Notes: generated by a model from the sequence alone, not told the origin. Positions 14,388 through 55,415 are shown, counted from the stretch's first letter. The stretch: 64,000 nucleotides of DNA from Frankiales bacterium (GCA_025465465.1 JAODND010000089.1:85336-149335); one strand, 5' to 3'. Translations and numbers: made by a program.

Positions 14388-14388
14388 G

Positions 14389-19666: not shown

Positions 19667-19673
19667 CGGGACC

Positions 19674-20108: not shown

Positions 20109-20524
20109 GGCCGCCGCCCGCCGACGCGGGCGGTGGCCTGCCCTTGCACCACGATGTTCCCGTCGCTGTCGACGAGCTGGCAGGAGACCTCCACCGTCCC
20201 GCTCGCCTCGTCTGCGCCGACTACGACAACCCGGGTCGACAGGGGGACGCCAGGCCAGACCTGCTTGGTGAAGCGCACGGCGAACCGGGTGAGGCAGTCC
20301 GGCCCCAGCCAGTCGGTGACCGCCGAGGCGAGGATGCCGGCGTTGAGCATCCCGGGGGCGAACACGCTGGGCATTCCCGCGGCCACTGCCTTCGTCTCGT
20401 CGTGGTGCATCGGGTTGAAGTCGCCAGAGACTCCGGCGTACCGGACGAAGTCGGTGCGGCTGAGCGCGATCTCTGTCGGCACCGCCTCGTCTCCGACCCG
20501 GACGGCTGGGCGGCTGGTCGGCAC
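20105..20524 (-). CDS. MaoC family dehydratase (R-hydratase)
   Basis: YAGVSGDFNPMHHD (D-x4-H dyad), APGM, VRFTKQVWPG. Confidence 0.9.
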   Translation of the reverse strand: MPTSRPAVRVGDEAVPTEIALSRTDFVRYAGVSGDFNPMHHDETKAVAAGMPSVFAPGMLNAGILASAVTDWLGPDCLTRFAVRFTKQVWPGVPLSTRVVVVGADEASGTVEVSCQLVDSDGNIVVQGQATARVGGRRP

Positions 20525-30713: not shown

Positions 30714-31978
30714 CGGTTCACGTCGCGCTGCGAGAAGGCATCCGCTGCGGCGGCGACGGCCTCGGACAGCGTCGTCGCGCGACCGGGTGGCGACGGCAGC
30801 TCGACGGGACCGTGCTCGCGACTGGGCAGCAGGACAGTGGCCGTGGCCGGTGTCGTCTCGACCCCGCGCTGGTTGGTGCACCTGAGCGCGATCTCAACCG
30901 CAGGACGGCCGCCCTCGGCGAGGTAGGACCGGGTCACCTCGCCGGTGATCCACTGGACGTCGCCGACGTAGTTGAACTGCCGGAACTCCACCCGCAGCCG
31001 CCACAGCCACGCGTCATCGCCCATCCAGTCGGTCAGCGCGTGGACGAGCCAGGTCTCACGCATCCGGCCGTAGTCGAACGTGGTCGGGTTCCCGCTCTTG
31101 ACGGCGAACGCCGGATCCCAGTGGACCCGCTGCATCACGTCCGGCACGCCGAGCTCGTCGCGGTGGTAGAAGCGCGGCACGCGCTGACGGTTCTGCCAGC
31201 CGAGCCGCAGGGGCGACACGTCATACATGCCCATCCCCATGCCGACGTGCCAGCAGACCATGTCGGTGACGGTCAGCGGCCCCTTGACCAGAGGCGTGAT
31301 GGCGTCACCGACGGTGACCTCCTCCCACCAGCGCGGCTCCGCGCCACGCGGCCCTTCGGTTGCATAGGCCGCCTCGACGGTCGCGAGCGCATCCTCACTC
31401 CAGGGCTCGACGACGACACCGTCGTACTTCTTGCGCTCACGTGCCTTGGCACGCTCCGTGCGGTACATCATCTTGTACTGGGCGCCGAGCAGCGTCCCGT
31501 CGCTGGTGGCGAACGCCTGTGCGGTCCATTCCTCGACGGCCCGGCCGGCGAACTCGCTCGCGTGGTCCAGGACTCCCACCAGCGCGGTGCGACGTTGCAC
31601 CGTGCCGTCCGGCCGCAGCGGCGCCCACCACTCACGCTCGCTCGCCGCGTAGAACGCATGCACACCGCGCAGTGGGTCGCCACGCAGTCCCCGGGCCTGG
31701 TCGCGCTCGGCGTCCGTAAGCTGGTCCTCACCGATGAGGCTGTCGCCGCCGATCAACGGTGGCGGGGCCACACTGCCCTTCCATACCGAGGCGGCGGCAT
31801 AGTCCGGGTCGCTCCACAACGGGTTGTCGTCGCCGTAGGACCACGCGACGGTGCGGAAGGCATCCTCACCGGGACGCCGGTAGTGGGGCCGGACGGGGTA
31901 GGGCTGCGGGATGCCGATGCGCTGCCGAAGCTGTTCGACGCCCTCGTCTGTGATGCGACCGGTGCTGTCCTCCGTCAT
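30710..31978 (-). CDS. Double hot-dog MaoC-family dehydratase
   Basis: YGDDNPLW.D.DYA N-terminal hot-dog, and C-terminal RVHWD, YGRM, EFRQFNYVGD; about 422 aa; GAGAGG upstream. Confidence 0.8.
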   Translation of the reverse strand: MTEDSTGRITDEGVEQLRQRIGIPQPYPVRPHYRRPGEDAFRTVAWSYGDDNPLWSDPDYAAASVWKGSVAPPPLIGGDSLIGEDQLTDAERDQARGLRGDPLRGVHAFYAASEREWWAPLRPDGTVQRRTALVGVLDHASEFAGRAVEEWTAQAFATSDGTLLGAQYKMMYRTERAKARERKKYDGVVVEPWSEDALATVEAAYATEGPRGAEPRWWEEVTVGDAITPLVKGPLTVTDMVCWHVGMGMGMYDVSPLRLGWQNRQRVPRFYHRDELGVPDVMQRVHWDPAFAVKSGNPTTFDYGRMRETWLVHALTDWMGDDAWLWRLRVEFRQFNYVGDVQWITGEVTRSYLAEGGRPAVEIALRCTNQRGVETTPATATVLLPSREHGPVELPSPPGRATTLSEAVAAAADAFSQRDVNR

Positions 31979-32015
31979 GCATCCTCTCCCGCTGAGCCCG
32001 TGCGCCGACCCTACG

Positions 32016-32030
32016 TATGTTGTATACACT
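32016..32030. promoter_or_regulatory. Putative GntR/FadR operator (motif 1)
   Basis: TATGTTGTATACACT in divergent spacer. Confidence 0.68.
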
Positions 32031-32059
32031 TTGCAAGCGCGCAACGGCGGGAGACGACT

Positions 32060-32785
32060 GTGACGGAGGGCCTGCTGGTCCGACGCGAAGGGCCGGTCGG
32101 TTGGCTCGTGTTCGACCGCCCCGAAGCCGGAAATGCGATGGATGCGGCCATGATGGAGGCGCTCCCGGCAGCCTGGTCCGACCTCGACGAGGACGCCGAC
32201 GTGCGGTGCATCGTGGTCACCGGCAACGGCAGCTCCTTCCAGACCGGCCTGGACGTCAAGCAGCTCAGCCGGGACCCCGCGGCGTTGAAGGCGATGTCGC
32301 GCCGGACGCGCGCCAACGACCTGCGGCTGACGGCAGTCCACTGCGGTGTGCAGAAGCCGGTCGTCACGGCGGTCAACGGCGTCTGCGCAGGTGGGGGTCT
32401 GCACTTCGTCGTCGACAGCGATCTGGTTCTCGCGAGCACGACAGCGTCCTTCCTCGATCCGCACGTGTCGCTCGGTCAGGTGAGCGCCTTCGAGGGGATC
32501 GGCCTGGCCCGGCGAGCGGCCTTCGGCGACGTGGCCCGCATGGTGCTGACCGGCGTCCATGCGAGGGTCACCGCGGAGCGCGCCCTCCAGCTCGGCTGGG
32601 TGGGCGAGGTCGTGCCGCCGGACGCCTTGCGGCAGCGGGCCCAGCACATCGCTGAGCAGGTCGCCGCCAACGACCCGACGGCGGTGCGCCACCGGCGGTG
32701 GGCGTTGTGGGCAGCGCTGGAAGACGTGGACGTCCGACGGGTGCGGTTGGCGACTGCTGGACCGACTGCCGGAGACGCAGCATGA
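32060..32785 (+). CDS. Enoyl-CoA hydratase/isomerase family protein (DPH-type)
   Basis: GNAMD, FQTGLD, KPVVTAVNG, FLDPHV; close paralogue of 27266-28087. Confidence 0.88.
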   Translation: MTEGLLVRREGPVGWLVFDRPEAGNAMDAAMMEALPAAWSDLDEDADVRCIVVTGNGSSFQTGLDVKQLSRDPAALKAMSRRTRANDLRLTAVHCGVQKPVVTAVNGVCAGGGLHFVVDSDLVLASTTASFLDPHVSLGQVSAFEGIGLARRAAFGDVARMVLTGVHARVTAERALQLGWVGEVVPPDALRQRAQHIAEQVAANDPTAVRHRRWALWAALEDVDVRRVRLATAGPTAGDAA

Positions 32786-34068
32786 CGAGCGGCAATGCAA
32801 GGGCGGAGCTCGAGTCGTGCGAGACCGCCGCTGACGTCGCCGAGGCGGTGCAGCGCTGGCTTGCCGCAGGGGTGCCCGCGCACTGGCGCGATGCCGCGGA
32901 ACGCGGAGGACCGTCGGCCGTGCGGGAGGTGCGGACACCGGAGGACTACCGCGGCTGGTATCCAGCCTTCGCCGCAACCGGCCTCGTCGTGCCGCAGTGG
33001 CCGACCCCCTACGGCGGTCTCGGGTGGGACCGCCGGCTGGCGAAGGCCGCAGAGCAGGTCCTGTCCCGCTATCACCTGCCGAGGCTCAACCCGCTCGGGC
33101 TCAACCTGGTGGCGCCGGCCCTGTTCGCGCATGGCACCGAGGATCAGCGCCTGCGGTATCTGCCGCCCATCGTGGACAACCGTGAGGTCTGGTGCCAGCT
33201 CTTCAGCGAGCCTGGGGCAGGGAGCGACTTGGCCTCTCTGGCGACGCGCGCTGTGCGGGCCGGCGACAGCTGGCGCATCACCGGTCAGAAGGTGTGGACG
33301 ACCTGGGCGCACCTTGCGGACTGGGGGGTGCTGCTCGCCCGAACAGACCCCGACGTCCCCAAGCGCCAGGGCATCAGCTATTTCCTCGTCGACATGCGCA
33401 GTCCGGGCATCGAGGTGCGTCCACTGCGCCACATCGGCGGCGAAGTGGACTTCAACGAGGTCTTCCTCGACGACGTGGTCGTTCCCGACCGCCAGCGCGT
33501 CGGTGACGTCCACGGCGGCTGGGCAGTGGCCCGCGCGACCCTGTCGGGTGAGCGGCAGATGGTCAGTGGCGCCGGCTCCGGTGGCGTCGACCGGATCGGC
33601 GGTAGCGGCGCCGGCCGGCTGCTCCGGCTCGCACAGGACCGCAGCGCGGCGGGACTTCCCGGGGGCTGGGACGACCCGTTGGTGCGCGACACGCTCGTCC
33701 GGCTGTGGATGGAGGAGCAGATCCGGTCGTGGACGAACGGCCGCGTGCGCGAGGGCCTCAAGGCGGGCCTGGCTCCCGGCCCGGAGAGCTCGATCGGCAA
33801 GGTCGCCGGCAGTGAGTTGAACCAGCGCATCCAGGCGGCCGCGGCCGACCTGCTCGGGGCGGACGCGACCGCCTGGGAGGGCGCGCAGGGCAGCTATGCC
33901 GAGCACATGCCTGCCGAGGTCCGCGGCATGCTGCGCAGCCGCGCCAACACGATCGAAGGGGGCACTTCGGAGGTGAACCGCACCATCCTGGCTGAGCGTG
34001 TGCTTGGCCTGCCCAAGGACCCGGACCCGTGGGAGGGCCGTCCTTGGCGCGAGGTCCCGAGAGGCTGA
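32782..34068 (+). CDS. Acyl-CoA dehydrogenase (catalytic-type subunit)
   Basis: WCQLFSEPGAGSDL, GQKVWT, TLSGER, TIEGGTSE, ERVLGLP; ATGA overlap. Confidence 0.93.
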   Translation: MTSGNARAELESCETAADVAEAVQRWLAAGVPAHWRDAAERGGPSAVREVRTPEDYRGWYPAFAATGLVVPQWPTPYGGLGWDRRLAKAAEQVLSRYHLPRLNPLGLNLVAPALFAHGTEDQRLRYLPPIVDNREVWCQLFSEPGAGSDLASLATRAVRAGDSWRITGQKVWTTWAHLADWGVLLARTDPDVPKRQGISYFLVDMRSPGIEVRPLRHIGGEVDFNEVFLDDVVVPDRQRVGDVHGGWAVARATLSGERQMVSGAGSGGVDRIGGSGAGRLLRLAQDRSAAGLPGGWDDPLVRDTLVRLWMEEQIRSWTNGRVREGLKAGLAPGPESSIGKVAGSELNQRIQAAAADLLGADATAWEGAQGSYAEHMPAEVRGMLRSRANTIEGGTSEVNRTILAERVLGLPKDPDPWEGRPWREVPRG

Positions 34069-42668: not shown

Positions 42669-43646
42669 GTGAGTTCCGTGGCAGTGCCGCAACCGCTGCG
42701 TCGCCTGCTGTACCCGCCGTTGCTCGTGCTGCAGGCCGCCGCCCGCCCGCTCGCCGTTGCCGGTCTGGTCGCCGCCGTCGGCGCTGCGCGGGGGCGACGG
42801 CCCGCCGTCGCGGCCCTCAGCCTGGCGCCATCGGTCTGGTACGTGATGACGCGCGTTGGAGGGGTCGGTGCGCGGCGAAGGCTGGCTCCGACCGCTGACC
42901 CATCCGCCGATTCACGTGTCGACTCAGGTGTCGACTCAGGTGTGACTGTGCTGACCGTCAACCTCTGGTGCGACAACCGCGCGGCCGCCGCCGCAGCCGA
43001 GGATGTCGCGCGGGTCGGCGCCGACGTCGTGCTGCTGCAGGAGGTGCCACCCGACCATGTCGCCGACCTGACCCGGCAGCTGAGCGATGGCTACCCCCAT
43101 CGGCTGATCGATGCTCGACCGGGGTACTACGGGTCGGCGATCTTCTCCCGGTTCGCGCTGGAAGGTGCTCACGGGTTCCAGGTCGCTGGGGTGCCGATGA
43201 CCCGGGCCGACCTCATGACTCCGGCTGGGAGGGTGCACGTCGTCAACGTGCATCTGGTGGCGCCGCTCTCGCCTGCCCTCGCGGAGCAGTGGCACAGCCA
43301 GTTGGATGCACTGGTGGCCCTCAGCGCCGGTCAGCGCCGGCCACTCGTCGTGGCCGGCGACTTCAACGCCACGGCAGACCACAGAGTGTTCCGTGCGCTT
43401 CGACGAGTCGGTTTGCGCGAGGTCGGCCGCTCGTGGAGGGCCTCGGCCACCTACCCCCGCCACCCGTTGCTGCCCGCAGCGTTCGAGTTGGATCATGTGC
43501 TCGTTCGGGGCATGGTGGCCCAGGCACCTGTACGCCGCATCAAGGTCGCTGGTAGCGACCACTACGGGCTGCTGGCTGAGCTGGTCGCGGCCCGGCCCGA
43601 GCGTTCGCGTCGGGTCGGGCACTCCCGTTGGGATGGTATGGGCTAG
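42669..43646 (+). CDS. Endonuclease/exonuclease/phosphatase (EEP) family protein with N-terminal membrane segment
   Basis: LTVNL, VVLLQE, AIFSRF, NVHL, AGDFNA, LDHVL, GSDHY; start approximate (GTG 42669). Confidence 0.88.
   Translation: MSSVAVPQPLRRLLYPPLLVLQAAARPLAVAGLVAAVGAARGRRPAVAALSLAPSVWYVMTRVGGVGARRRLAPTADPSADSRVDSGVDSGVTVLTVNLWCDNRAAAAAAEDVARVGADVVLLQEVPPDHVADLTRQLSDGYPHRLIDARPGYYGSAIFSRFALEGAHGFQVAGVPMTRADLMTPAGRVHVVNVHLVAPLSPALAEQWHSQLDALVALSAGQRRPLVVAGDFNATADHRVFRALRRVGLREVGRSWRASATYPRHPLLPAAFELDHVLVRGMVAQAPVRRIKVAGSDHYGLLAELVAARPERSRRVGHSRWDGMG
42916..42947 (+). repeat. 12-bp tandem repeat (GTGTCGACTCAG x2 plus partial), in frame
   Basis: Seen directly; encodes VDSGVDSGVT in the EEP linker. 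Confidence 0.8.
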
Positions 43647-43731
43647 TTATGTCGTGCGTTGCGCGTCGCTCATTGTGGGGATTGTTGCGATCGCCATTCA
43701 GCCGCGACGCGAACAGGCCGATCCAGGCCAT

Positions 43732-46602
43732 ATGCCACACGGCGCATCGCGGGACTTCTCAGGGCTGAACACCCGCTTGGTGGTCGACCATGTCCGAGCG
43801 GTGCTCGGCGCGGACGGGGTGGCCGCGCTGCTCTCGGGGGCCCAGGAGGAGCGGCCGATCGAGTTGCTGCTCGACGACACGACGTGGAGTTCGTACGGGC
43901 AGTTCCGTCGCCTCCTGGAGGCGGCAGCCCGACTCCTCGCGTCGCACGGCGGTCTGGAGGTCATGGCCGGGCTGCCGAGCCTTGGGTCCAACCCGTCTCC
44001 CGAGCTTGCCCGCATGATGCAGGCGCTCGGCTCGCCGCTCGCCGTGGCGCTCACGACGACTGACGCGGCGCCCAGCCTCTATCCCTTGCTCGCCATGTCG
44101 GTGGAGGTGCTGGCGCCGACGCACGTCCGCTTCCACCGGCGCGTGCTGGCCGGCCACGAGCCGTTCCCCGAGCTCTGTGCCTTCTTCATCGGACTCGTGC
44201 CGCGCACGGTGCGACTCTTCGGTCTGCGCGTACTCGACGTGAGCGAGGTGCACTGCCAGCTGCGCGGCGACGAGGACTGCGTGACCGAGCTGCGGTGGGA
44301 TGAGACCGCCGACCTGGCGGTGCAGCGGGACCTCATGCGCATGAGGATGGAGATCGCGGAAAGCCGCCTGGAGGGGTTCCAGCAGACGGTCAACGACATC
44401 GTCTCGGCCGACGACCTGGGCGCCGTTCTGACGCGGATCGTGCAAAGCGCCGCCCGAGCGACGACCGCGCCCGGCTTCGTGCTGTCGGTCGACGCGCTGC
44501 CCCACGGGACCGGGATCTTCGCCGACGGGATCAGCGTCGAGGAGGCGGAGCGGGTGCTGGCCGATGCTGACAGCTACCTCTGCGTCGAGGTGGCCTCGGC
44601 GCGGCAGCGTTACGGACGACTGCTTGCGGTCGTGCCGCCCTCGTCCTCCTTCCACGAGCGAACCTCACTGGAGGCCTACGCACGGCTCGCTGCGACGGCC
44701 CTCGACTCCGCGTTCGCGCTGGAACAGGCCCGACGACAGGCGCAGGCGGCCGAGGCGCTGCTGCGGCTGTCGAGATCACTGGCCGACCTCACCTCCTCGG
44801 CGGAGCTGGCGGCGAAACTGACCCGAGCCGTGCCCGACGTGATCGACTGCGACGGTGCCGCGGTGCTGCTCATCTCAGATGGCGTGGCGCGGGTAGCCGC
44901 CCATTACGGCTGCTCGCCTGAGCTCGCCGACGAGCTGGACCGTCAGGAGTTCGCGGGCGATGAGCTGCTCCAGCTGCTCCAGTTGGACCGGCGGACTCCC
45001 GAGGACATGTCGCCACAGGGACGAGCTTTGATGGAGACCTTCGGCTGGCAGGCGATCGCCGCCGCTCCGCTGGAGATCGACGGCGAGACATACGGCATGC
45101 TCATCGCGTCGGTGCGCCACGACAAGGCGCGCATCCTCGACGACGAGAAGCTGACAGACCGCTTCGCGGGGCTTGCAGGACAAGCTGCTGTCGCGCTCCG
45201 CAACAGCCAGCTGATGGATCAGATCCGCCATCAGGCTCTCCATGATCCGCTGACCCACATCCCGAATCGGACGCTGCTCATGGAACGGGCCGAGCAGATG
45301 CTGGCCGACGCTCGAAGCGGTGACGGAACGGTGGCGGCGCTCTTTCTCGACCTGGATGGCTTCAAGGAGGTCAACGACACCCTGGGCCATGACATCGGCG
45401 ACGGGCTGCTGCAGGCGGTCGCCGAGCGCCTGCAGAGCCTCGTGCGCGACCAGGACACGGTCGGTCGGCTCGGCGGTGACGAATTCATCGTCCTGGTCGA
45501 GTGCGGGTCGATGGACTCCGACGTCACGGACCTCGCTGACCGACTCCTCCGAGGCATACGCGCACCGCTCATGCTGCCGGGCTGCGACCGGCCGATTGCC
45601 GTCGGCGCCAGCATCGGCATCGCGATCGGCGACCGTGCCTGCGCCGAGGACCTGCTGCACGACGCCGACATGGCGCTGCACCAGGCGAAGGCCAGTGGCA
45701 AGAACTGCTACCGCGTGTTCACGAGCGAGATCGGCGCCTCGGTGGTCCTGCGCGCGGAACTCGCGGGCGTCGCGGGGCATCTCCCTGGGCATGGCGAGCT
45801 TTCCATCGTCTATCAGCCGATGGTCGACCTCACCACCACGGCGGTCGTGGGGGTCGAGGCGCTGTTGCGCTGGCACCACGATGACCTCGGCCAGGTCTCG
45901 CCGACGACGTTCGTCCCGCTGCTCGAGGAGAGCGGGATGATCGTGGACGTTGGTCGCTGGGTCCTTCGCGAGGCATGCCGCGAGGCGGCAGCGCTCCGCG
46001 ATGCGGGACATCAGCTGACGATGTCGGTGAACGCGTCGGCACGGCAGCTCGAGTGCATCGAGTTCGTGGACGACGTCCGAGCAGCGCTGCGCGACAGCGG
46101 GATCCCGGGTGACGCGCTCGTGCTCGAGATCACCGAGACCGCCCTCGTGCGCGACATCCGCGCCACCCGCGACGTGCTCACCCAGCTCAAGCAGCTCGGC
46201 GTCGGAGTTGCGATAGACGACTTCGGTACCGGCTACTCGTCACTGGCCTATCTCCGAGACTTCCCCGTCGACATCCTCAAGATTGCTCGTGGCTTCGTCG
46301 CCGGCGGAACCCACTCAGCAGCCGCGCGCCAGCTCCTCAGCACCTTCGTCGAACTCGGACGGTCCTTGGGTCTGCGGACCGTGGCCGAGGGCATCGAGAC
46401 GCAGGCAGAGCTGCAGTGGTTGCGCCATATCGGGTGCGACACAGGCCAGGGGTACCTGTGCTCCCCGCCGCTGTCCGCGCACGAGCTCGCCGGCATGCTC
46501 GCCCGAGGGCCGGCACCCGCCCTGCCGGTGCCGGCGCCGCGCCTCGCTGAGCGGCCCGACGGCCGCGGTCCGCGCCTGGTCGTGCACGCACAGGACAGCT
46601 AG
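43732..46602 (+). CDS. H-NOX/V4R-like sensor + GAF + GGDEF + EAL c-di-GMP protein
   Basis: HDPLT..PNR, DLDGFKEVND..GH, RLGGDEF, EALLRW, DDFGTGYSS, VAEGIE; N-terminal C...E.HC...G...C pattern; start approximate (ATG 43732). Confidence 0.9.
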   Translation: MPHGASRDFSGLNTRLVVDHVRAVLGADGVAALLSGAQEERPIELLLDDTTWSSYGQFRRLLEAAARLLASHGGLEVMAGLPSLGSNPSPELARMMQALGSPLAVALTTTDAAPSLYPLLAMSVEVLAPTHVRFHRRVLAGHEPFPELCAFFIGLVPRTVRLFGLRVLDVSEVHCQLRGDEDCVTELRWDETADLAVQRDLMRMRMEIAESRLEGFQQTVNDIVSADDLGAVLTRIVQSAARATTAPGFVLSVDALPHGTGIFADGISVEEAERVLADADSYLCVEVASARQRYGRLLAVVPPSSSFHERTSLEAYARLAATALDSAFALEQARRQAQAAEALLRLSRSLADLTSSAELAAKLTRAVPDVIDCDGAAVLLISDGVARVAAHYGCSPELADELDRQEFAGDELLQLLQLDRRTPEDMSPQGRALMETFGWQAIAAAPLEIDGETYGMLIASVRHDKARILDDEKLTDRFAGLAGQAAVALRNSQLMDQIRHQALHDPLTHIPNRTLLMERAEQMLADARSGDGTVAALFLDLDGFKEVNDTLGHDIGDGLLQAVAERLQSLVRDQDTVGRLGGDEFIVLVECGSMDSDVTDLADRLLRGIRAPLMLPGCDRPIAVGASIGIAIGDRACAEDLLHDADMALHQAKASGKNCYRVFTSEIGASVVLRAELAGVAGHLPGHGELSIVYQPMVDLTTTAVVGVEALLRWHHDDLGQVSPTTFVPLLEESGMIVDVGRWVLREACREAAALRDAGHQLTMSVNASARQLECIEFVDDVRAALRDSGIPGDALVLEITETALVRDIRATRDVLTQLKQLGVGVAIDDFGTGYSSLAYLRDFPVDILKIARGFVAGGTHSAAARQLLSTFVELGRSLGLRTVAEGIETQAELQWLRHIGCDTGQGYLCSPPLSAHELAGMLARGPAPALPVPAPRLAERPDGRGPRLVVHAQDS

Positions 46603-46756
46603 CGTCCGACGCGCCCGGAGGGTGCGACGATCACCGCCAGGTCCGGGCCGTTGGCCATCCTGGGAGGGACCTCCGCGGGTCCCGCTTCGTCCCTGCCAGA
46701 CCGGGCCGAGGCGGTCTACCTGCCTTGTCACAACCGGATGGCGTGCGTAAGGTGCA

Positions 46757-46769
46757 TTTTGTATACAAG
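46757..46769. promoter_or_regulatory. Putative GntR/FadR operator (motif 1)
   Basis: TTTTGTATACAAG (TTGTATACAA core) upstream of ABC operon. Confidence 0.72.
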
Positions 46770-46843
46770 TTGCCGCTCTGTTACCTGTGACAGGCCCGGA
46801 CGGTGGCAGAAACCCAGAGTCTCTACCGAAGGTGATGGCGTCG

Positions 46844-48292
46844 ATGAGGGTTCGCACTAGCCTGGCCGCGGCGGTCGGGGTCGCGATGGCGCTGGCAGGC
46901 TGCGGGACGATGACGGACTCGGCGCTGCACGACCAAGCCGCCCGAGCCGCGCTCGGCGGCGGAGGCGGAACGCAGGTCGGCAGCGGCGCGGGGCCCAGCG
47001 CGACGGCCGGCCCCGGGAACGGCGGGGCGACCGGCACCACGGGTGCGGGTGGCGGCGCGACAGGGAGCAACCTCCCCGGGTCGGGCGGGTCGGGCGGCAC
47101 CACGGGCAGTACCGGCGGACCACAGGTCGGAACCCCGAAGGGGCCCGGTGGCAACGGAGGCGCCACCGCGCTCGGGGTCACGGCGACCTCCATCACGGTG
47201 GGGACCGTCGCCACACTCTCGGGACCCGTCCCCGGCCTCTTTCAGGGAGCGATCGCCGGCACAAAGGCGTACTTCGCGTACGTCAACAGCCAAGGCGGGC
47301 TGTACGGGCGCACCCTGAAGGTGGACGGCAAGGACGACGCGTTCAGCTGCACCACCAACGAGAAGGTCACGCAGGACGCCATCAAGAACGACTTCGCCCT
47401 CGTCGGCAGCTTTTCCATCTACGACTACTGCGGAGCTCAGGCCATCAAGGCCTCGCCAGGCGTGGCTGACGTCTCGATGGCGATCAATCCCGAACACACG
47501 GCGCTGAAGAACACGTTCCCTGTGCAGCCGGTGACGCCGGGCTTCAGGACCGGCGCCTTCGAGTACTACAAGGCGAAGTTCGGTAACGCCTACCAGACGA
47601 CGGGCGCCCTCTACGTCAACAGCCCCAGCGCCAAGTCGGCCTACGACAACGCCAAGGCGACCATGCAGCATCTGGGTTACAAGGTGGTGTACGAGCGGGC
47701 GGTGGCCGCGACGGACAGCAACTTCACCTCCGACGTCATCCAGATGAAGCAGAAGAACGTGAAGTTCGTCGAGATCCTCGCGAATCCACCGATCATCGCG
47801 AACTTCATGGCCGCCGCGGCCCAGCAAGGCTTCAAGCCAGTGATCACCACACCGGGGCAGGGCTACGACCAGGGGACGCTGAGCCAGGGCGGCTCCGCGG
47901 TCGAGGGCCTCTACACCGATACGCCAAGCGCGCTGTACTTCAACAAGGACGACGCGGCGCGCATCCCCGAGGTCGCCCTCTACCAGAAGTGGATGGGCAC
48001 GGCCGCGCCCGGCGTGGCGCTCGACCTGTTCTCCGTCTACGGGTGGGCGCAGGCTGAGCTGTTCGTACAGGCGGCACGCAAGGCCGGCGCCAAGCTGACC
48101 AGGCCGGCGTTGCTGGCGGCCCTGGGTGGCATCCCCACGTTCTCAGACAACATCCTTGCCCCGGGCGGACCGGCTAAGAAGCAGGCCGCGACCTGCTACG
48201 TGCTCACGAAGGTCGTGAACGGCGCCTTCGTGCGGGTCGACAGTCCTGCCAGCAGCTATCGATGCGACGGCACCTTCTTCCGCACCGGCTAG
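46844..48292 (+). CDS. ABC transporter substrate-binding lipoprotein (LivJ/K-like periplasmic binding protein type I)
   Basis: Lipobox LAGC, long Gly/Thr linker, ITVG, AYVNSQGGLYGRTL; followed by LIV permease and ATPases. Confidence 0.9.
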   Translation: MRVRTSLAAAVGVAMALAGCGTMTDSALHDQAARAALGGGGGTQVGSGAGPSATAGPGNGGATGTTGAGGGATGSNLPGSGGSGGTTGSTGGPQVGTPKGPGGNGGATALGVTATSITVGTVATLSGPVPGLFQGAIAGTKAYFAYVNSQGGLYGRTLKVDGKDDAFSCTTNEKVTQDAIKNDFALVGSFSIYDYCGAQAIKASPGVADVSMAINPEHTALKNTFPVQPVTPGFRTGAFEYYKAKFGNAYQTTGALYVNSPSAKSAYDNAKATMQHLGYKVVYERAVAATDSNFTSDVIQMKQKNVKFVEILANPPIIANFMAAAAQQGFKPVITTPGQGYDQGTLSQGGSAVEGLYTDTPSALYFNKDDAARIPEVALYQKWMGTAAPGVALDLFSVYGWAQAELFVQAARKAGAKLTRPALLAALGGIPTFSDNILAPGGPAKKQAATCYVLTKVVNGAFVRVDSPASSYRCDGTFFRTG

Positions 48293-48340
48293 CAGCCGAA
48301 CAGTCGGACGGCCATGCCCAGATCCTGACCAGGAGCCATC

Positions 48341-50230
48341 ATCGGAACTTTCTTCGCCCTGAGCGTCGCCGGCATCGTCTACGGCTGCGTGTACTCCATC
48401 ACGGCGTCCGGCCTGGTGGTCACCTACGCCACGTCAGGCATCTTCAACTTCGCCCACGGAGCGCTCGGCATGCTGGGGGCCTTCACCTACTGGCAGCTGA
48501 CCGTGGCCTGGCACGTGCCACCCCTTGCCGCTCTGGCACTCGTCCTGCTGGTGGTGGCGCCGCTGCTCGGCGCTGTCGTGGAGCGGGTGCTCATCCGGCG
48601 TCTCTACGGAACGTCGTTGAGCGTCACGCTCGTCGTGACGGTCGGGCTGCTGCTCGCACTGATCGGGGTAGCGAACCTGATCTGGAGCCCGGTGACCCCC
48701 AGGGTGCTCAAGCCGTTCTTCCCCAACAGCCTGATCCATCTGCCGGGTGTCAACGTCAGCGCCCACCAGGCGATCGTCGTGCTCGTGTCGCTACTGGTCG
48801 CGGTCGCACTGCGGGTCTTCCTCGCGCGCACCCGGACCGGTGCCACGATGCGGGCGGTTGTCGATGACCCAGGACTGGTCGCACTCACCGGGACCTCGCC
48901 GGCACGCGCCAGTCAGCTGTCGTGGGCGCTCGGCTCCAGCCTGGCCGCCCTGGCCGGCATCCTGCTCGCGCCCTTGGTGACGCTGAGCATCCTGACGCTG
49001 ACGCTCCTGGTCATCAACGGCTATGCGGCGGCCGTCGTCGGCCGGCTGCGCAGCCTTCCGCTGACTGCCGTCGGCGGGCTCGCCCTGGGGCTGGCCGAGT
49101 CCTACTCGACGGGCTATCTCGGCGGAGACCTGCCCAACCTGCTGCGGCCGGCGCTGCCGATGTTCCTGCTGTTCGTGGCGGTCGTCTTCCTCCGCGACAC
49201 GCGCCTGCGGGCTGGTGGCCGCATCGTGGGCTGGAGTCCGCGGGCCGTCGGCCTGGGCGAGTCCGTCCGCTGGTCGTCACTCCTGCTCGTCGTGGCTCTG
49301 CTGGCCGCCGCCCTCGCACCGGGTGGCCTGGTCGACTTCCTGTCGTCGACCTTGGCCATCGGCTTCGTGCTGCTGTCGCTCGTCCTTCTCAGCGGGTACG
49401 CCGGCCAGGTGTCGCTGTGCCAGCTCACGTTCGTCGGGGTCGGCGCCTACGTCATGGCCAAGGTCGCGCCCGGCGGGTCGGCTTTCGGGATCCTGGTCGT
49501 CGTACCTGTGTGCGCGCTGCTGGGCGTTGCTGTGGCAGTGCCGGTCCTGCGCCTTCGCGGCCTGTATCTCGCGCTCGCGACACTCGCGTTCGCCTCGGGG
49601 ATGGACACGATCTTCTTCCTGAACGCCTTCGGCACCGGAGGTGCGATCAGCGTGCCCCGGCTGTCCTTGCCAGGTGTCGACAGCAACCGCGGCTACCTGA
49701 TCCTGCTCACGCTGGCGTTCGCGGCCGGCGCCGTGGGGCTGCTGAGTCTGCGCCGTTCCCGGGTCGGGCGGCGGATGTCAGCGCTGAATGACAGCCCCGC
49801 CGCGTGCGTCACGCTCGGCGTCGGCGTGAACCGGACGAAGCTCGGCGTCTTCGCCGGCGCCGCGGCGATGTCCGGCCTGGGTGGGGTGTTGCTGGGCGGG
49901 CAGGAAGGACTCGTGAGCGGGAACGACTTCCAGATGCTCAACAGCCTCGTGCTGCTGCTCATCTTGACGATCGGAGGGGCGTCCACCGTCAGCGGAGCGT
50001 TGCTCGGGGCCGTCCTGTTCAGCGCGTTCCCGATCATTGCCGAGCACGTGTCCTTCCTCAGCCAGGCCTCGCTGCTGCTGACCGGGCTCGGAGCCGTCAG
50101 CATCGGTCGCAATCCCTACGGCATCGTGGGGGAGGCGTCACGTCGCTTTGCCGCCGCCCGCCAGGCCGGCCGTGGTGCCCTTGCCAGCGTGGTCATCCGT
50201 CCTTCGCCCCTCCGCGACGGTGTCCTGTGA
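48341..50230 (+). CDS. Fused LivH-LivM branched-chain-type ABC permease
   Basis: FNFAHG and GQVSL.Q..F.G.G motifs, many TM helices; start placed at ATC 48341 after AGGAG (ORF-track start GTG 48389 lies inside TM1). Confidence 0.9.
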   Translation: MGTFFALSVAGIVYGCVYSITASGLVVTYATSGIFNFAHGALGMLGAFTYWQLTVAWHVPPLAALALVLLVVAPLLGAVVERVLIRRLYGTSLSVTLVVTVGLLLALIGVANLIWSPVTPRVLKPFFPNSLIHLPGVNVSAHQAIVVLVSLLVAVALRVFLARTRTGATMRAVVDDPGLVALTGTSPARASQLSWALGSSLAALAGILLAPLVTLSILTLTLLVINGYAAAVVGRLRSLPLTAVGGLALGLAESYSTGYLGGDLPNLLRPALPMFLLFVAVVFLRDTRLRAGGRIVGWSPRAVGLGESVRWSSLLLVVALLAAALAPGGLVDFLSSTLAIGFVLLSLVLLSGYAGQVSLCQLTFVGVGAYVMAKVAPGGSAFGILVVVPVCALLGVAVAVPVLRLRGLYLALATLAFASGMDTIFFLNAFGTGGAISVPRLSLPGVDSNRGYLILLTLAFAAGAVGLLSLRRSRVGRRMSALNDSPAACVTLGVGVNRTKLGVFAGAAAMSGLGGVLLGGQEGLVSGNDFQMLNSLVLLLILTIGGASTVSGALLGAVLFSAFPIIAEHVSFLSQASLLLTGLGAVSIGRNPYGIVGEASRRFAAARQAGRGALASVVIRPSPLRDGVL

Positions 50231-50949
50231 GCGCCGACGCCGACATCCCGGCCCTCGAGCTCATCGACGTCCGCGCGGGCTACGGCCGGATCGAGGTGCT
50301 GCACACCGTCGACCTGGTCGTGCCGCCGGGCTCGGTCGTCGCCCTTCTCGGACCGAACGGTGCCGGGAAGACCACGACGCTGGCGGTTGCCAGTGGCCGC
50401 GTGGTGCCGACAGCCGGCTGCGTCCATGTCGGCGGGCGACACGTCAACGGGCTTCCGCCGGAGGCTTTCGTGCGCGGGGGCGTGTGCAGCATCCCGGAAG
50501 GACGTGGGGTCTTTGCCAACCTCACCGTCCGAGACAACCTGAAGCTCTGGAGTCACGGCACCAGCCGGTCCCTGTCCGAGATCGAGGACATGGTGTTCGC
50601 GCGGTTTCCGCGACTGAAGGAGCGCAGGCGGCAGCTCGCCGGCACGATGTCCGGAGGCGAACAGCAAATGCTTGCGGTGGCGCGCGCGGTCGTGGCCGAC
50701 GCGGGCCTGCTGCTCCTCGACGAGATCAGCATGGGCCTGGCGCCGCGCATCGTCGCCGAGCTCTACGAGCTCGTCGCACAGCTCGCCGCGGACGGGCTCG
50801 CCATCCTGCTGGTGGAGCAGTTCGCCCAGACAGCCCTTGCCGTCGCCGACCATGCGGCGATCATGACGTCAGGTGTCATCCGGGCCGTCGGCGATCCCGT
50901 GGACATCGCAGCGGAGCTCGCGGCCGCATATCTCGGAGGAGTGGCATGA
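50227..50949 (+). CDS. livF: ABC transporter ATP-binding protein, LivF-like
   Basis: GPNGAGKTT, PEGRGVFANLTV.DNL, MSGGEQQMLA, LLLDE; GTGA overlap. Confidence 0.92.
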   Translation: MSADADIPALELIDVRAGYGRIEVLHTVDLVVPPGSVVALLGPNGAGKTTTLAVASGRVVPTAGCVHVGGRHVNGLPPEAFVRGGVCSIPEGRGVFANLTVRDNLKLWSHGTSRSLSEIEDMVFARFPRLKERRRQLAGTMSGGEQQMLAVARAVVADAGLLLLDEISMGLAPRIVAELYELVAQLAADGLAILLVEQFAQTALAVADHAAIMTSGVIRAVGDPVDIAAELAAAYLGGVA

Positions 50950-52268
50950 GATCGATTCGCTGGTGTGCACCGACTGGCCTGATCATCGCGGCCTTCGCCG
51001 TGCCGCCTCTGATCCCGGCTGGGACCTCGACGGCCTACGCAGCCGTCGAACCCGGGTCCGGCTTCGCGTCCTACCGGCTCTCCGCCAACGCTCCGACCCT
51101 CAGCTTCACCGAGGACAACGACGGGGCGACCGCACATCCGGAGGCCGAGGGTGACCTGCCCGAGGCGGTCAGCACCCTCGGCAGCACCGGCGGCTCCTAC
51201 GCGCTGTCGAGCGCCGTGTGGCCGGGGGCGCTCGCGGGAAACCTCGGGACCCTGCTCATCGGAGCGAGCGGCGGCCAGGTGCCTGACCAGGCGAGCGTTC
51301 TTGACGATCCGGTTCGCGCCGAGGCCAAGAACAACGAGGGCAGCGTGAGCAACAAGAGCTACCCAGGTATGACCCTGCTCGCGGACTCGCATCCGGCTTC
51401 AGCCTCGGCGTCCGCGCACCTCCAGGGGGCGCAGGCCTCGGCAGCTCTGGCTCTCGGCGACACCAGCGCGGACAGCTCCACGGTGCTGGTCGGCGCCTTG
51501 ACGGCCAAGGCGACGTCCACCGGCAGCCTGCACGACGTCAAGCTGGCGGGCGGTGCCGTCAGCATCGCCTCCGTGCGCTCCACGGCGTCCGTTGTCAGCG
51601 ATGGTCGCAAGGCGACCGGGTCTGGATCCACGATCGTCTCAGGAGCCACTGTCGCAGGGCTGCCCGTCGCGATCGACGGTTCCGGCGTACATGCTGCCAG
51701 CGCGAGTCAGGCGCTTCCAGGTCAGGCGCAGCAGACCGTCAACACGGCGCTCCGCAACCTCGGCATGACCATCGCGCTCATCGGTCCGACCACCTCAACG
51801 AAGGCCGGCACCGTGAGCTACGTGGCAGCCACCCTCGTGGTGACATGGATGCCGCCGCCGGCGCCCGGTGGGCCGAACACCCACGAGAAGATCGTCGTCA
51901 CCGTCGGGGGAGCGTCCGCTGCGGCGTCCGCCGTGCCGGGCTATGTCGTGCCGACCACCGGTGACCTTCCCTCGACAGCCCTGCCGCCGACGCTCCCGGG
52001 CTCCCCGGGGTCGAACGGCCAGGTCGCGCCGCAGCCGAACGTGGGCGGCCCTGTCACCCAGCCCACCCTCGCCGCGGGAGGTGTTGGCCCTGCCATCGCC
52101 CCGGTCAACGCGGCGTCAACCCAGCTGCCTGCGATCCCCGGTCCGCTCGCCGTCGGGTGGCTGCTCGCGGGCATTGCGGCCGCCATCGTGCTCGGACTCG
52201 GCTACCTCCGTCGGCTTCCGACGGCGTTTGCAACGGCGACTGGACGATGCCCGTGGGAGGTCTCTTGA
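50946..52268 (+). CDS. Secreted, C-terminally membrane-anchored hypothetical protein
   Basis: N-terminal hydrophobic signal ending TAYA, Ala/Ser/Thr/Gly-rich core, Pro-rich stalk, TM AVGWLLAGIAAAIVLGLGYL then RR; ATGA overlap with livF. Confidence 0.8.
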   Translation: MRSIRWCAPTGLIIAAFAVPPLIPAGTSTAYAAVEPGSGFASYRLSANAPTLSFTEDNDGATAHPEAEGDLPEAVSTLGSTGGSYALSSAVWPGALAGNLGTLLIGASGGQVPDQASVLDDPVRAEAKNNEGSVSNKSYPGMTLLADSHPASASASAHLQGAQASAALALGDTSADSSTVLVGALTAKATSTGSLHDVKLAGGAVSIASVRSTASVVSDGRKATGSGSTIVSGATVAGLPVAIDGSGVHAASASQALPGQAQQTVNTALRNLGMTIALIGPTTSTKAGTVSYVAATLVVTWMPPPAPGGPNTHEKIVVTVGGASAAASAVPGYVVPTTGDLPSTALPPTLPGSPGSNGQVAPQPNVGGPVTQPTLAAGGVGPAIAPVNAASTQLPAIPGPLAVGWLLAGIAAAIVLGLGYLRRLPTAFATATGRCPWEVS

Positions 52269-52708
52269 TGACCGCGCTCGAACAACCCGGCACGCAGAGC
52301 CGACACAGCTTCCTGGTGCGCCGCATCGCGGCCGAGACCGACGGCGTCCGCCGATGGACGCTGTCGCAGGTGTTCTTCGCTACCGGCTCAGTGGCGATTC
52401 CCCTCGGTCTGGTGTTCCTGGCGCTCGGCTACTGGGGTGTCGCGCACACGACGCTGGTCTTCGACCAGCTGCCGTACCTCGCCTCCGGAGGATTGGTGGG
52501 GCTGGGGCTCATCATCCTCGGCGGCTTCCTCTACTTCGGCCATTGGCAGGTGCTCGCCGCGGAGGAGCGTCGAGCTGAGAGTCGCCGCCAGGCCGAGCGC
52601 GACCAGCAGCTGCTCGCCAGCCTCGACCGGGTGCATGAGGCCCTGCAGGCGCTGGCGGCCCCGTCCTCCCGGCGCGACCGAGCTCCGGGCCGCACCTCCG
52701 CTCCCTGA
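52268..52708 (+). CDS. Two-TM hypothetical membrane protein with charged helical tail
   Basis: Two hydrophobic helices flanking DQLPYLASGG, then EERRAESRRQAERDQQLL; TGATG overlap. Confidence 0.78.
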   Translation: MTALEQPGTQSRHSFLVRRIAAETDGVRRWTLSQVFFATGSVAIPLGLVFLALGYWGVAHTTLVFDQLPYLASGGLVGLGLIILGGFLYFGHWQVLAAEERRAESRRQAERDQQLLASLDRVHEALQALAAPSSRRDRAPGRTSAP

Positions 52709-52769
52709 CCGACCACCTGCGGGTGTCCCGAGACTGCTTGACATCGGCTGCGCAGCCTTCAGAATAAAT

Positions 52770-52783
52770 CAGATATACAACAT
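52770..52783. promoter_or_regulatory. Putative GntR/FadR operator (motif 1)
   Basis: CAGATATACAACAT upstream of livG-like gene. Confidence 0.65.
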
Positions 52784-52819
52784 GCACGATGCATTCTGCG
52801 GAGTGCTCCGAGGCAAGGG

Positions 52820-53638
52820 GTGAGGCGGACGACGACCTTGAGCGCGCCGAGCCCGGTTGACGGCCAGGGCGACGAGCCTACGGACCCGGCGCTGCAGGTC
52901 CATGACGTGTCGGTGGCCTTCGGCGGCGTCCGGGCGCTGGACGCGGTCAGCCTCTCCGTGCAGGCGGGTCAGGTCACCGGGCTGATCGGGCCGAATGGCG
53001 CGGGAAAGACCACGCTGTTCAACGTCATCACCGGCCTGCAGACACCGAACGCCGGCCGCATCGTGCTGCGTGGGCGCGACATCACGGCACGCACTCCGGT
53101 CCGCCGCGCCAGGATGGGGATGGCGCGGACCTTCCAACGACTCGAGGTCTTCGGCAGCCTCACAGCGCTCGACAACATCCTCGCCGCCGCGGAGTTCCGC
53201 CGGGGCTGGGCGCGCGATGGCAGCGACCCGCGTCGGGTCGCGGACGACATCCTCGACAGGGTGGGTCTACGGGAGGTGGCCGGCGAACGCGTCGACGGCC
53301 TACCTACCGGTCTGGCGCGGCTGGTCGAGCTCGGTCGGGCGCTCGCCACCCGCCCGTCCCTGCTCCTGCTCGACGAGCCTGGCTCAGGCCTCGACGGGAC
53401 CGAGAGCGCTGCGCTGGGCGAGCTGCTCGTCGAGACGAGTGCGACCGGGACAGCGGTGCTCATCGTCGAGCACGACGTGGAGCTGGTGATGCGCATCTGC
53501 AGCACCGTGCACGTGCTCGACTTCGGGCGTCTCATCGCGTCCGGAGCGCCGTCGCAGGTCCAGCGGGACCCAGCAGTCCAGGCCGCCTACCTGGGTGCCG
53601 AGGGCGGCTCGACCGCAACCGGCAAAGGCGTGACCTAG
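52820..53638 (+). CDS. livG: ABC transporter ATP-binding protein, LivG-like
   Basis: FGGVRAL, GPNGAGKTTLFN, RTFQ, LLLDEP, EHD, AYLG. Confidence 0.92.
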   Translation: MRRTTTLSAPSPVDGQGDEPTDPALQVHDVSVAFGGVRALDAVSLSVQAGQVTGLIGPNGAGKTTLFNVITGLQTPNAGRIVLRGRDITARTPVRRARMGMARTFQRLEVFGSLTALDNILAAAEFRRGWARDGSDPRRVADDILDRVGLREVAGERVDGLPTGLARLVELGRALATRPSLLLLDEPGSGLDGTESAALGELLVETSATGTAVLIVEHDVELVMRICSTVHVLDFGRLIASGAPSQVQRDPAVQAAYLGAEGGSTATGKGVT

Positions 53639-53886: not shown

Positions 53887-55002
53887 TTAGGTCTCGCCTC
53901 CGAGGATGCACGCACCGCGGCCTGAGCTCATCAGCACGTGACGGGCGCCCGCCACCTGGTTGGCTGCTGTGCCGCGCACCTGCCGTACCGCCTCGGTCAG
54001 CAGGTTCATCCCGTGCAGGTAGCCCTCGCCGATCAGGCCGCCGTTCGTGTTCACCGGCACGATCCCACCCCGCCGGATCGCACCGCTCGCCACGAAGTCC
54101 TTGACCTCGCCCCGCGGGCACAGGGCCAGGTCCTCGAGACTGCTGAACACCTCGACGGAGAACGCGTCGTAGACCATGGCAGCGTCGAGGTCCGTGGGCC
54201 CGACACCGGCCTGCGCGTACACGCGGCCGGCAACATCGGCGGCTCCCACCCCTTGAGCGGCCCCGAGCACGACGGCGGGCCGCTGTCGCAGGTCGCGCGC
54301 CCGTTCGACGGTGCTGACGACGAAGGCCACACCACCGTCGGTCTCCTGGCAGCAGTCCAGCAGCCGCAGGACGGGTTCGATGATCCAGCGCGACGCCTGG
54401 TGTTCCTCGAACGTGATCGGCCGGTTGTGGAACCATGCGCTCGGGTTGGTCGCCGCAAAGTCACGGATGCCGACGACATACTCGGCGAAGTCCTCGTTGG
54501 ACAGCGCGTGGGAGCTCATGAAGGCCATGGCGTGCATCGACAGCGTCGCGGCGGGTGTGAGGGCTCCGTAGGGCGCATACCACTGCGCGAACGACCAGCC
54601 GGAGCCGACGCTCGGCGCCGCACCGGGGTCTCGCGGCTGCCCGAACCGACGGCCTGACCTCGCGTTCAAAGCCCGGTAGACGAGCACATGTCGCGCAGCG
54701 CCGGTCGCGACCGCCGCGGCTGCGTGGTAGACGGTCGCGCCCGATCCGCCGCCGCCGTGCGGGAGCCGGACGGAGTATCCGAGTGACGGCACGCCGAGCA
54801 CACGCATGAGCTCGACATCTTCGGTCGGGTCGACGCTGAACGTCACCATGCCGTCGATGTCAGAGACGCCCAGCCCTGCGTCGGCAAGCGCTGCCAGGCT
54901 GGCCTCCGCGGCGAGCTGCAGCTCGCTGCGACCGGAATCCTTGGAGAAGTCGGTCTGCCCGATCCCGACGATCGCAGCGTCCAGCGGCCGGGTGGTGCTC
55001 AC
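53887..55002 (-). CDS. Lipid-transfer protein / Ltp2-like thiolase-fold aldolase
   Basis: AAIVGIGQTDFSKDSGRSEL, LLDCCQETDGG, VYDAF, GGLIGEGYLHG; no N-terminal catalytic Cys; GTGA overlap at 55002. Confidence 0.88.
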   Translation of the reverse strand: MSTTRPLDAAIVGIGQTDFSKDSGRSELQLAAEASLAALADAGLGVSDIDGMVTFSVDPTEDVELMRVLGVPSLGYSVRLPHGGGGSGATVYHAAAAVATGAARHVLVYRALNARSGRRFGQPRDPGAAPSVGSGWSFAQWYAPYGALTPAATLSMHAMAFMSSHALSNEDFAEYVVGIRDFAATNPSAWFHNRPITFEEHQASRWIIEPVLRLLDCCQETDGGVAFVVSTVERARDLRQRPAVVLGAAQGVGAADVAGRVYAQAGVGPTDLDAAMVYDAFSVEVFSSLEDLALCPRGEVKDFVASGAIRRGGIVPVNTNGGLIGEGYLHGMNLLTEAVRQVRGTAANQVAGARHVLMSSGRGACILGGET

Positions 55003-55415
55003 GCGCGCACGGGACGGAACAGCGGCACGCCCAATGCTTTGTCGGTGGTAGCGGCGAAGCAGACCTCCACGGGCATCCCGAGCTCGAGCTCGTCCCGTGC
55101 GGCGTCGCAGATGTTCGTCGTCACCCGTGGACCTTCCTCGAGCTCGACCGTGCCGACGACGATCGGTAGTTCGAACGACGGGATGGGGGGGTGATGAATG
55201 ATGATGAAGCTCGTCAGCCGTCCGCGTCCTGACATCTGCTTGACGGTGCGCTGTGGACTGTGGCAGCTGGGGCACAGCGGCGCGGGCGGGTGGCAAAGGA
55301 CACCGCATCTGCCGCAGTCCTGGATGAGCAGCTCCCCCCGTCCGGCACCCTCCCAGTAGAACGCGGTGTCGCGTGTGATCGAGGGTGCCGGGCGTCGCGT
55401 CTCGTCGGTTTCCAA
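54999..55415 (-). CDS. DUF35 Zn-ribbon/OB-fold protein
   Basis: FYWEG, QDCGRC...PLCPSC, ELEEGPRV.TN. Confidence 0.92.
   Translation of the reverse strand: METDETRRPAPSITRDTAFYWEGAGRGELLIQDCGRCGVLCHPPAPLCPSCHSPQRTVKQMSGRGRLTSFIIIHHPPIPSFELPIVVGTVELEEGPRVTTNICDAARDELELGMPVEVCFAATTDKALGVPLFRPVRA

Follow-up and report, generated by a model that had tools for sequence, protein, structure and literature searches.

A LIV-type ABC importer with two conserved accessory membrane proteins, encoded in a putative acyl-CoA catabolic island of a Frankiales bacterium

Importers of the LIV/HAAT family are treated as five-component machines, and the locus at 46.7-53.6 kb of a 64,000-nucleotide stretch of DNA from a Frankiales bacterium (contig C72:85336-149335, here called the window) raises the question of why an importer of this type should be encoded together with two further membrane proteins, and of what it may carry. 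From the analysis reported here, the conserved coupling of this accessory pair with the LIV cassette is firmly supported, and the two proteins are very probably a functional part of the transporter. On balance, and with considerable reserve, we favour the view of a six-component LIV/HAAT variant, equipped with a dedicated accessory pair, that would act as the uptake arm of the surrounding acyl-CoA catabolic island and take up a hydrophobic acid.

The cassette is read on the + strand and begins with the gene of a substrate-binding protein (SBP) of the lipoprotein type (46844-48292; alternative starts at 46835, 46832 and 46787), in which a signal peptide with an LAGC lipobox is followed by approximately 94 disordered Gly/Thr/Ser-rich residues and by a Peripla_BP_6 domain (PF13458, E = 8e-38). 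Next comes a fused LivH-LivM permease (annotated at 48389-50230, probably 48338-50230), formed by two BPD_transp_2 (PF02653) halves, the N-terminal one matching LivH/UrtB and the C-terminal one LivM/UrtC in Pfam/NCBIfam scans. It is followed by a LivF-type ATPase (P0003, 50227-50949; LivF 6.6e-53, UrtE 2.7e-53), by a secreted, C-terminally anchored protein of 440 residues (P0004, 50946-52268), here acc440, by a two-helix membrane protein of 146 residues (52268-52708), here acc146, and by a LivG-type ATPase (P0006, 52820-53638; LivG 6e-57) with the BCA_ABC_TP_C tail (PF12399). The hallmarks of the HAAT/LIV family (TC 3.A.1.4), namely a cluster-B SBP of the Peripla_BP_6 type, two BPD_transp_2 domains and distinct LivG and LivF proteins, are all present. 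Translation and the domain scans recovered the six genes where a first-pass annotation, made from the sequence alone, had placed them, and direct reading of the DNA confirmed the overlaps it had described: GTGA at 50227-50230 joins the permease gene and livF, ATGA at 50946-49 joins livF and acc440, and TGATG at 52266-70 joins acc440 and acc146. Shine-Dalgarno-like GGAGG stands ahead of both of the latter junctions, with GGAGGAG just before ATGA and GGGAGG just before TGATG.

The evidence that the two additional genes belong with the transporter comes from their neighbourhoods in other genomes. A profile search detected acc440 in 38 of 401 Actinomycetota genomes, approximately a tenth, most of them small genomes of other families; no match was found in any listed genome of the window's own order. 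At all 20 loci taken, which stem from 19 genomes of other actinobacterial families, acc440 lies immediately after the LIV core, with a recognisable acc146 adjoining it in 14. A search started from acc146 in a species-representative genome collection yielded 80 loci, in 77 of which acc440 is directly upstream, the remaining three being cut by contig ends, and the permease is present in every such locus with enough upstream DNA. The first-pass annotation had proposed that both accessory genes consistently accompany this LIV subfamily, and this holds across many actinobacterial lineages (20 of 20 and 77 of 77 informative loci): the neighbourhood check brought up no homologues unlinked to LIV transporters, and in the 97 informative loci that were examined the pair always accompanied a LIV cassette. 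In the collections searched the subfamily is restricted to Actinomycetota; the only cultured carrier among the 80 loci is Nocardioides limicola DJM-14 (L099). Both protein families are large. With HMMER, acc440 matched 2,041 clusters at E ≤ 1e-3 and 1,425 at E ≤ 1e-10 among 1.84 billion representative proteins, the count of approximately 2,000 referring to clusters at 50% identity, and of the best 150 matches listed, the full-length ones mostly have 405-475 residues. For acc146 at least 642 database clusters are matched, and the names among the matches listed are all 'hypothetical protein' from actinobacterial metagenome-assembled genomes (MAGs).

The genome to which the window belongs (3.85 Mb in 115 contigs, with a completeness estimate of 90%) itself contains five or six paralogous cassettes according to tblastn. 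On contigs C99, C55 and C8 the acc440-acc146 pair comes straight after SBP-LivHM-LivG-LivF; on C43 (42267-45318) acc440 is present, the ATPase genes are absent and acc146 is undetectable; C33 carries a weak variant. The accessory pairs of these paralogous cassettes have diverged to 27-45% identity within the one genome. Three metagenomic homologues keep the pair beside the fused permease, the ATPases and the SBP. Six gene orders were found among the pair-bearing cassettes: for instance, the order is inverted in L010 (acc440, acc146, LivHM, LivG, LivF, with the SBP gene divergent), acc440 stands between LivG and LivF in L064, L066, L074 and L077, and in two Acidimicrobiia MAGs (L073:3856-6576 and L082:3755-6580) one fusion protein of approximately 860 residues combines LivH, LivM and LivF. 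Several cassettes, that on C43 included, are without ATPase genes and presumably borrow ATPases encoded elsewhere. In a permease tree, whose sampling is biased towards cassettes, the pair-linked LivHM proteins group together, with distant pair-less fused permeases as a long-branch outgroup and a few pair-less relatives as long branches within or at the base of the cassette group.

The organization predicted for acc440 is that of a stalked surface protein. A signal peptide (to approximately residue 32) precedes a beta-rich ectodomain (approximately residues 40-330), after which come a disordered Pro-rich stalk (residues 333-402), a membrane-spanning helix (403-427) and, on the cytoplasmic side, a short tail that contains a conserved Cys (RCPWEVS). 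The AlphaFold2 (AF2) model, built on 17 sequences, predicts an all-beta ectodomain of long hairpins with one helix and a predicted local distance difference test score (pLDDT) mostly of 80-90. Across the homologues the cytoplasmic tail measures 18-38 residues and always contains one Cys, in variants such as CPxEE, C.LGAP.SVPNLR and CSHGLETGVPDLR. No Pfam family was found for acc440. Its residues 146-244 weakly match positions 23-123 of the choice-of-anchor P profile NF040603 (23 bits against a cutoff of 27, E = 6.5e-5), and the same profile is matched at E < 0.01 by 9 of the 17 family members, with a best E value of 5.8e-8. A profile search of the PDB sequences with acc440 gave nothing, and Foldseek proposed only porin/FadL-type barrels, which were rejected as fold matches (template modelling score, TM, 0.08-0.24; root-mean-square deviation, rmsd, 16-28 Å); the likeness of the modelled ectodomain to such barrels appears to be that of long beta-hairpins in general. 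Anchoring by sortase, or through another C-terminal sorting signal, was also considered and discarded, since acc440 contains no LPXTG or LAXTG and its tail is long and conserved.

For acc146 the predicted topology is N-in and C-in, with two transmembrane helices, an outer loop and a cytoplasmic charged helix. The core formed by the two helices and the short outer loop is strongly conserved among the homologues (LGWxGAxHT..FEQIPYLISGGLLGLALV..GGFxYFAYW), the loop reading HT..FDQLPYLASGG in the protein of the window. Most homologues are of approximately 180-190 residues and carry an additional cytoplasmic C-terminal His-Cys3 motif, FHRPDC...PC.IC.P, which in its longer form (FVAT..G.MFHRPDC.VV.GR..L..V....L.PC.IC.PL; L045-L124, C55 and C8) is zinc-ribbon-like and is matched by no Pfam or NCBIfam model. 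This tail is absent from the short form of acc146 encoded in the window and from those of C99, L032 and L044. No Pfam or NCBIfam model scored above threshold for acc146 itself, and assignments to T2SS-M, PhaG/MnhG, COX14 or ABZJ_00895 were rejected, all being sub-cutoff and confined to transmembrane or coiled-coil segments.

A first indication of how acc440 may work with the core comes from the SBP. Every cassette SBP is a lipoprotein in which a short conserved segment (GARLT.EQR) follows the lipobox Cys and is in turn followed by a Gly/Thr/Ser-rich low-complexity tether; in the AF2 model of the SBP of the window (pLDDT 80) residues 1-106 fall below 50 and are disordered, and the domain is above 90. 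In a fuller form the post-lipobox segment common to the cassette SBPs (L045-L123) reads ACG(A/S)RL(T/S)xEQRxA, with AGCGTMTDSALHDQAARAAL as the version found in the window. Over 65 cassettes the SBP tethers measure 75-140 residues (median 100) and the acc440 stalks 47-131 residues (median 98), and the two lengths are correlated, with a Spearman coefficient of 0.55 and p = 2e-6 in a statistic that ignores phylogeny. Tethers are much shorter in the two closest paralogues without acc440 (approximately 20 and 17-51 residues), and the closest solved SBP, 4N03, begins only approximately 30 residues ahead of its domain. These lengths suggest that the SBP and the acc440 ectodomain would act at an equal distance from the membrane, in a working zone presumably within the wall, and their match is the best available hint that the two proteins cooperate outside the cell.

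The connection of the cassette with the rest of the window is provided by an operator. It is a 22-bp palindrome, TGCA-N3-TGTATACA-N3-TGCA, of which the motif noted in the first-pass annotation is one half. The pattern TGCATNTTGTATAYMW has 13 matches in the window where 0.3 are expected, a number reached in none of 100 shuffles; they sit at 11 places (window 6928-58959), all intergenic, and when the whole 3.85-Mb genome was scanned with a position-weight matrix, the 13 matches that exceeded 20 bits were all located in the island, at 6.9-58.9 kb of the window. The same scan gave no operator above 20 bits at the other paralogous cassettes. Perfect copies ahead of both the SBP gene and livG, as had been proposed, were found at 46753 and 52771. 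The former, TGCATTTTGTATACAAGTTGCC (46753-46774; no mismatch on the + strand, two on the - strand), scores 29.5 bits, the highest value in the genome, and overlaps the -10 element of a promoter-like site on the + strand (46725-46753) with TTGTCA as -35 (46725-30), a 17-nucleotide spacer and TAAGGT as -10 (46748-53), which was read by eye and not reported by the consensus scan. The latter (52771-52786; no mismatches, 25.9 bits) lies just downstream of the -10 element of a sigma-70-like promoter of livG, also on the + strand (52738-52765; TTGACA, 16 nucleotides, CAGAAT; 10 of 12 positions, 0.2 sites expected in shuffles). Such placement at both promoters would fit repression. The probable repressor is a GntR/FCD-family regulator encoded on the - strand at 18341-19048, the sole regulator domain among the 43 window proteins scanned; no strong operator copy was found ahead of its own gene. 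The core T.GTATAC.A presumably resembles known GntR operators. A steroid-type operator of KstR (TetR family) was rejected: the core TTGTATACAA is unlike known KstR motifs, and the island yielded no regulator domain other than that of the GntR/FCD protein.

The island that shares this operator regulon with the cassette extends over 54 kb. Its genes encode five AMP-forming CoA ligases, one ADP-forming acyl-CoA synthetase, four family III CoA-transferases, acyl-CoA dehydrogenases, in part as adjacent pairs, enoyl-CoA hydratases, thiolases, an SCP-x-type thiolase beside an OB-fold (DUF35-type) protein, a MaoC/hot-dog pair, Amidohydro_2 proteins, short-chain dehydrogenases, an aldehyde dehydrogenase and probably a P450, of a family that is seen in a 97%-identical MAG. 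A similar environment was found around the cassettes of other genomes, where genes of the acyl-CoA type reach a density of 2.5 per 10 kb in the flanks of 80 loci, against 0.5 in the whole genome of the window; most of those in the flanks encode acyl-CoA dehydrogenases, ligases, short-chain dehydrogenases and P450s. The excess of approximately five-fold is to be taken as rough, the background being that of one genome and many of the 80 loci being orthologous and not independent. From operators and gene content, there is good support for regarding the cassette as the likely importer that serves this locally regulated island of acyl-CoA catabolism.

As to the substrate, the closest solved structure by profile is 4N03 (E = 5e-26), deposited as 'Fatty acid ABC transporter substrate-binding protein from Thermomonospora curvata', which is also the joint best structural match to the SBP model (TM 0.78, target-normalised; rmsd 3.3 Å; 22% identity). 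In Foldseek the model aligns with LIV-type SBPs at target-normalised TM values of 0.73-0.83. The 4N03 protein was rejected as a component of such a cassette, since its orthologues are found in ordinary five-gene operons without acc440 and acc146. SBPs of the COG0683 group often bind fatty, dicarboxylic or aromatic acids and not Leu, Ile or Val, and LIV-type importers of fatty and dicarboxylic acids are already known (PMC3223731). An organic acid is probably the substrate rather than an amino acid; most likely it would be an amphipathic or hydrophobic carboxylic acid that enters beta-oxidation as its CoA thioester, and Leu, Ile or Val are less likely candidates. The first-pass annotation had argued for a hydrophobic substrate from a shared lipid regulon. 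The operator regulon shared with the acyl-CoA island is confirmed and a hydrophobic substrate is plausible, in view of the co-regulation, the flank excess and 4N03; the structure of the SBP is neutral in this respect. A hydrophobic-acid substrate has precedent and is, hence, not new.

With these elements a working scheme may be drawn. A repressor, probably the GntR/FCD protein, would bind the palindrome on or after the -10 elements of the SBP-to-acc146 operon and of livG, the latter being transcribed from its own operator-controlled promoter, so that the transporter and the degradation enzymes, which share these sites, would be induced together. In the envelope, acc146 would lie in the membrane beside the permease and hold the anchor of acc440, whose ectodomain would reside in the cell-wall zone, level with the tethered SBP. 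There, acc440 would either capture a poorly soluble substrate and pass it to the SBP or serve as a docking platform for the SBP. The former possibility, capture of the substrate by acc440 with hand-off to the SBP, is tentative and should be regarded as rather unlikely. Bolder, and somewhat more doubtful still, is the proposal that with acc440 and acc146 a binding-protein-dependent (type I) ABC importer of bacteria with a single membrane would for the first time be credited with dedicated subunits on the envelope side. The ectodomains of acc440, possibly as oligomers of their long beta-hairpins, would then form a hydrophobic capture surface or conduit in the wall, gathering poorly soluble acids and delivering them to the SBP tethered at the same height, and acc146 would couple it to the permease. 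If true, the system would be a Gram-positive counterpart of the relay through outer membrane and periplasm, in the logic of FadL or Mce, on a LIV chassis.

Several observations weigh against the interpretation as a six-component importer of a hydrophobic acid, in addition to the neglect of phylogeny in the length correlation and the roughness of the flank comparison. The SBP model lies no farther from the binders of pyroglutamate, Leu, Val and aromatic acids than from that of fatty acids, so that its structure does not discriminate between these ligand classes. The ectodomain of acc440 is without a structural match (TM 0.1-0.24, Foldseek against the PDB), and acc146 of the window lacks the His-Cys3 tail, the function of which is therefore dispensable here. 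Finally, two close paralogues in the same genome, on C69 and at C72:58.5-62.1 kb, are without acc440, nothing following the operon on C69 and only a two-helix protein of 130 residues that on C72; the pair is therefore characteristic of the subfamily and not obligatory for the core transporter. The loop FEQIPYLISGG is missing from the 130-residue protein (C72:62153-62545), which shares 16% identity with acc146 and may be either distantly related to it or an unrelated small membrane protein.

That close paralogues work without acc440 is also what would be expected if the accessory pair were a regulatory or assembly module with no part in substrate handling. In that case acc146 would use its coiled coil and His-Cys3 motif to contact the permease or the ATPases from the cytoplasmic side and so gate or stabilise the transporter, and acc440 would sense an envelope or extracellular cue or position the complex in the wall. 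Among the most conserved parts of the two proteins are cytoplasmic ones, the His-Cys3 motif in acc146 and, in acc440, the tail with one Cys, and LivF is tightly tied to the pair, given its fusion with the permease in L073 and L082 and the position of acc440 between LivG and LivF in four loci. However, each paralogous cassette possesses its own diverged pair, which better fits partners specific for a substrate or an SBP, tether length tracks stalk length, which points to a partnership outside the cytoplasm, and acc146 of the window is itself without the His-Cys3 motif. A regulatory or assembly module is rather unlikely.

A different objection concerns the substrate, as the cassette could be an ordinary importer of amino-acid, amide or peptide-derived nitrogen, placed in the island by general nutrient co-regulation and with accessory proteins that have nothing to do with hydrophobic compounds. 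The core components do score best against LivH/M/G/F and Urt models, and in Foldseek the binders of pyroglutamate, Leu and Val rank on a par with that of fatty acids. The NCBIfam equivalog scores, however, are all far under their cutoffs, the operator is confined to the island and present on both transporter promoters, genes for acyl-CoA dehydrogenases, CoA ligases and P450s also surround cassettes at other loci, and binding of Leu, Ile or Val is often lacking among COG0683 proteins (PMC3223731), so that nitrogen import seems improbable. Least probable is that the accessory pair builds a surface structure of its own, such as an adhesin or envelope protein and a membrane partner, that is merely co-transcribed and makes no contact with the transporter, a view to which the distant relationship of the acc440 centre with choice-of-anchor P domains would lend itself, but with which the linkage to LIV cassettes, unbroken in the 97 informative loci, the position inside the operon, even between ATPase genes, and the translational coupling are hard to reconcile.

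Among known systems, E. coli LIV-I (LivJ/LivK-LivHMGF; HAAT, TC 3.A.1.4) has the same Peripla_BP_6 SBP, LivH and LivM domains, LivG with BCA_ABC_TP_C and LivF. The cassette differs from it in the fused permease, in the lipoprotein SBP on a tether of approximately 100 residues, in the two extra conserved membrane proteins, in a livG gene with its own promoter and in co-regulation with acyl-CoA catabolism instead of amino-acid metabolism. In function, the best precedent for a substrate of the proposed class is the COG0683/LIV-type system RPA3723-3725 of Rhodopseudomonas palustris, which adjoins the pimFABCDE beta-oxidation operon and whose SBPs bind medium- and long-chain fatty and dicarboxylic acids (PMC3223731). 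That system, compared here through its publication only, is Gram-negative and periplasmic, and accessory membrane proteins are not reported in PMC3223731. The orthologues of 4N03, in turn, belong to LivF-LivG-LivH-LivM-SBP operons, in which the permease is split, the SBP tether is short and acc440 and acc146 are both absent. With the actinobacterial Mce importers of lipids and sterols, and their Mas/Mam and LucA accessories, the likeness is one of logic, in that extra envelope-spanning and small membrane proteins are employed: the analogy drawn in the first-pass annotation stands at this functional level and fails as homology, since Pfam/NCBIfam scans of the six cassette proteins revealed no MCE domain and no YrbE/MlaE permease. 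A MceG-type ATPase is also absent, and the cassette, at variance with Mce systems, has a classical SBP and a type I LIV permease. The choice-of-anchor P family (NF040603) has no known function or reported link with transporters, and acc440 is anchored by a transmembrane helix with a Cys-containing tail. A search of the literature on accessory subunits of HAAT transporters, and on the CamABCD family type, gave nothing usable.

What emerges is a large and coherent LIV subfamily with two further proteins, for neither of which a Pfam or NCBIfam model passes threshold, so that two new protein families are to be defined, together with an architecture in which a tethered SBP and a stalked partner reach matching heights. 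The cassettes are abundant in uncultured soil lineages (Frankiales-like, Mycobacteriales-like, Acidimicrobiia and Nocardioidaceae), and because of this abundance, and of their tendency to adjoin acyl-CoA catabolic genes, they may be a main route for the uptake of plant- or lipid-derived acids in soil actinobacteria.

Some details of the locus deserve mention. In the stretch 48314-48389, the true start of the fused permease is probably ATC at 48338 or 48341, 16-17 codons upstream of the annotated GTG at 48389. The sequence AGGAG (48331-35) precedes the two ATC codons, a canonical start further upstream is ruled out because of an in-frame TGA at 48326, and the TGA-AGGAG-ATCATC layout is identical in two independent assemblies (L012 and L013). 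The N-termini of the paralogous LivHM proteins reach approximately 17 residues further than the GTG start, which would cost as many residues of a first transmembrane helix that the paralogues keep.

The window has a G+C content of approximately 70%, and its sequence was found solely in soil metagenomes or soil DNA runs, with no RNA run holding the locus among the runs matched; the closest named relative is a 'Frankiales bacterium' MAG (97% identity over P0007). Directly upstream of the cassette, a large GAF-GGDEF-EAL protein is encoded on the + strand (43306-46602), with no operator copy ahead of its gene. Within the island, acyl-CoA dehydrogenase pairs, the FAS1_DH/MaoC pair and the SCP-x-type thiolase set are found at 13200-15360, 19169-20524 and 53887-55415, and an open reading frame of 138 codons beside the SCP-x-type thiolase has a counterpart with zf-ChsH2 and OB_ChsH2_C domains in the 97%-identical MAG (L012). 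We take the dehydrogenase pairs, the thiolase and the OB-fold protein to resemble sets for steroid side-chain degradation (ChsE, ChsH, Ltp2); the window showed no genes for ring opening. A further open reading frame of 696 codons on the - strand (30710-32800), with a high G+C content at third codon positions and no Pfam match, contains an operator palindrome at 32014-32035 and probably represents either two genes or a shorter gene with its upstream promoter region.

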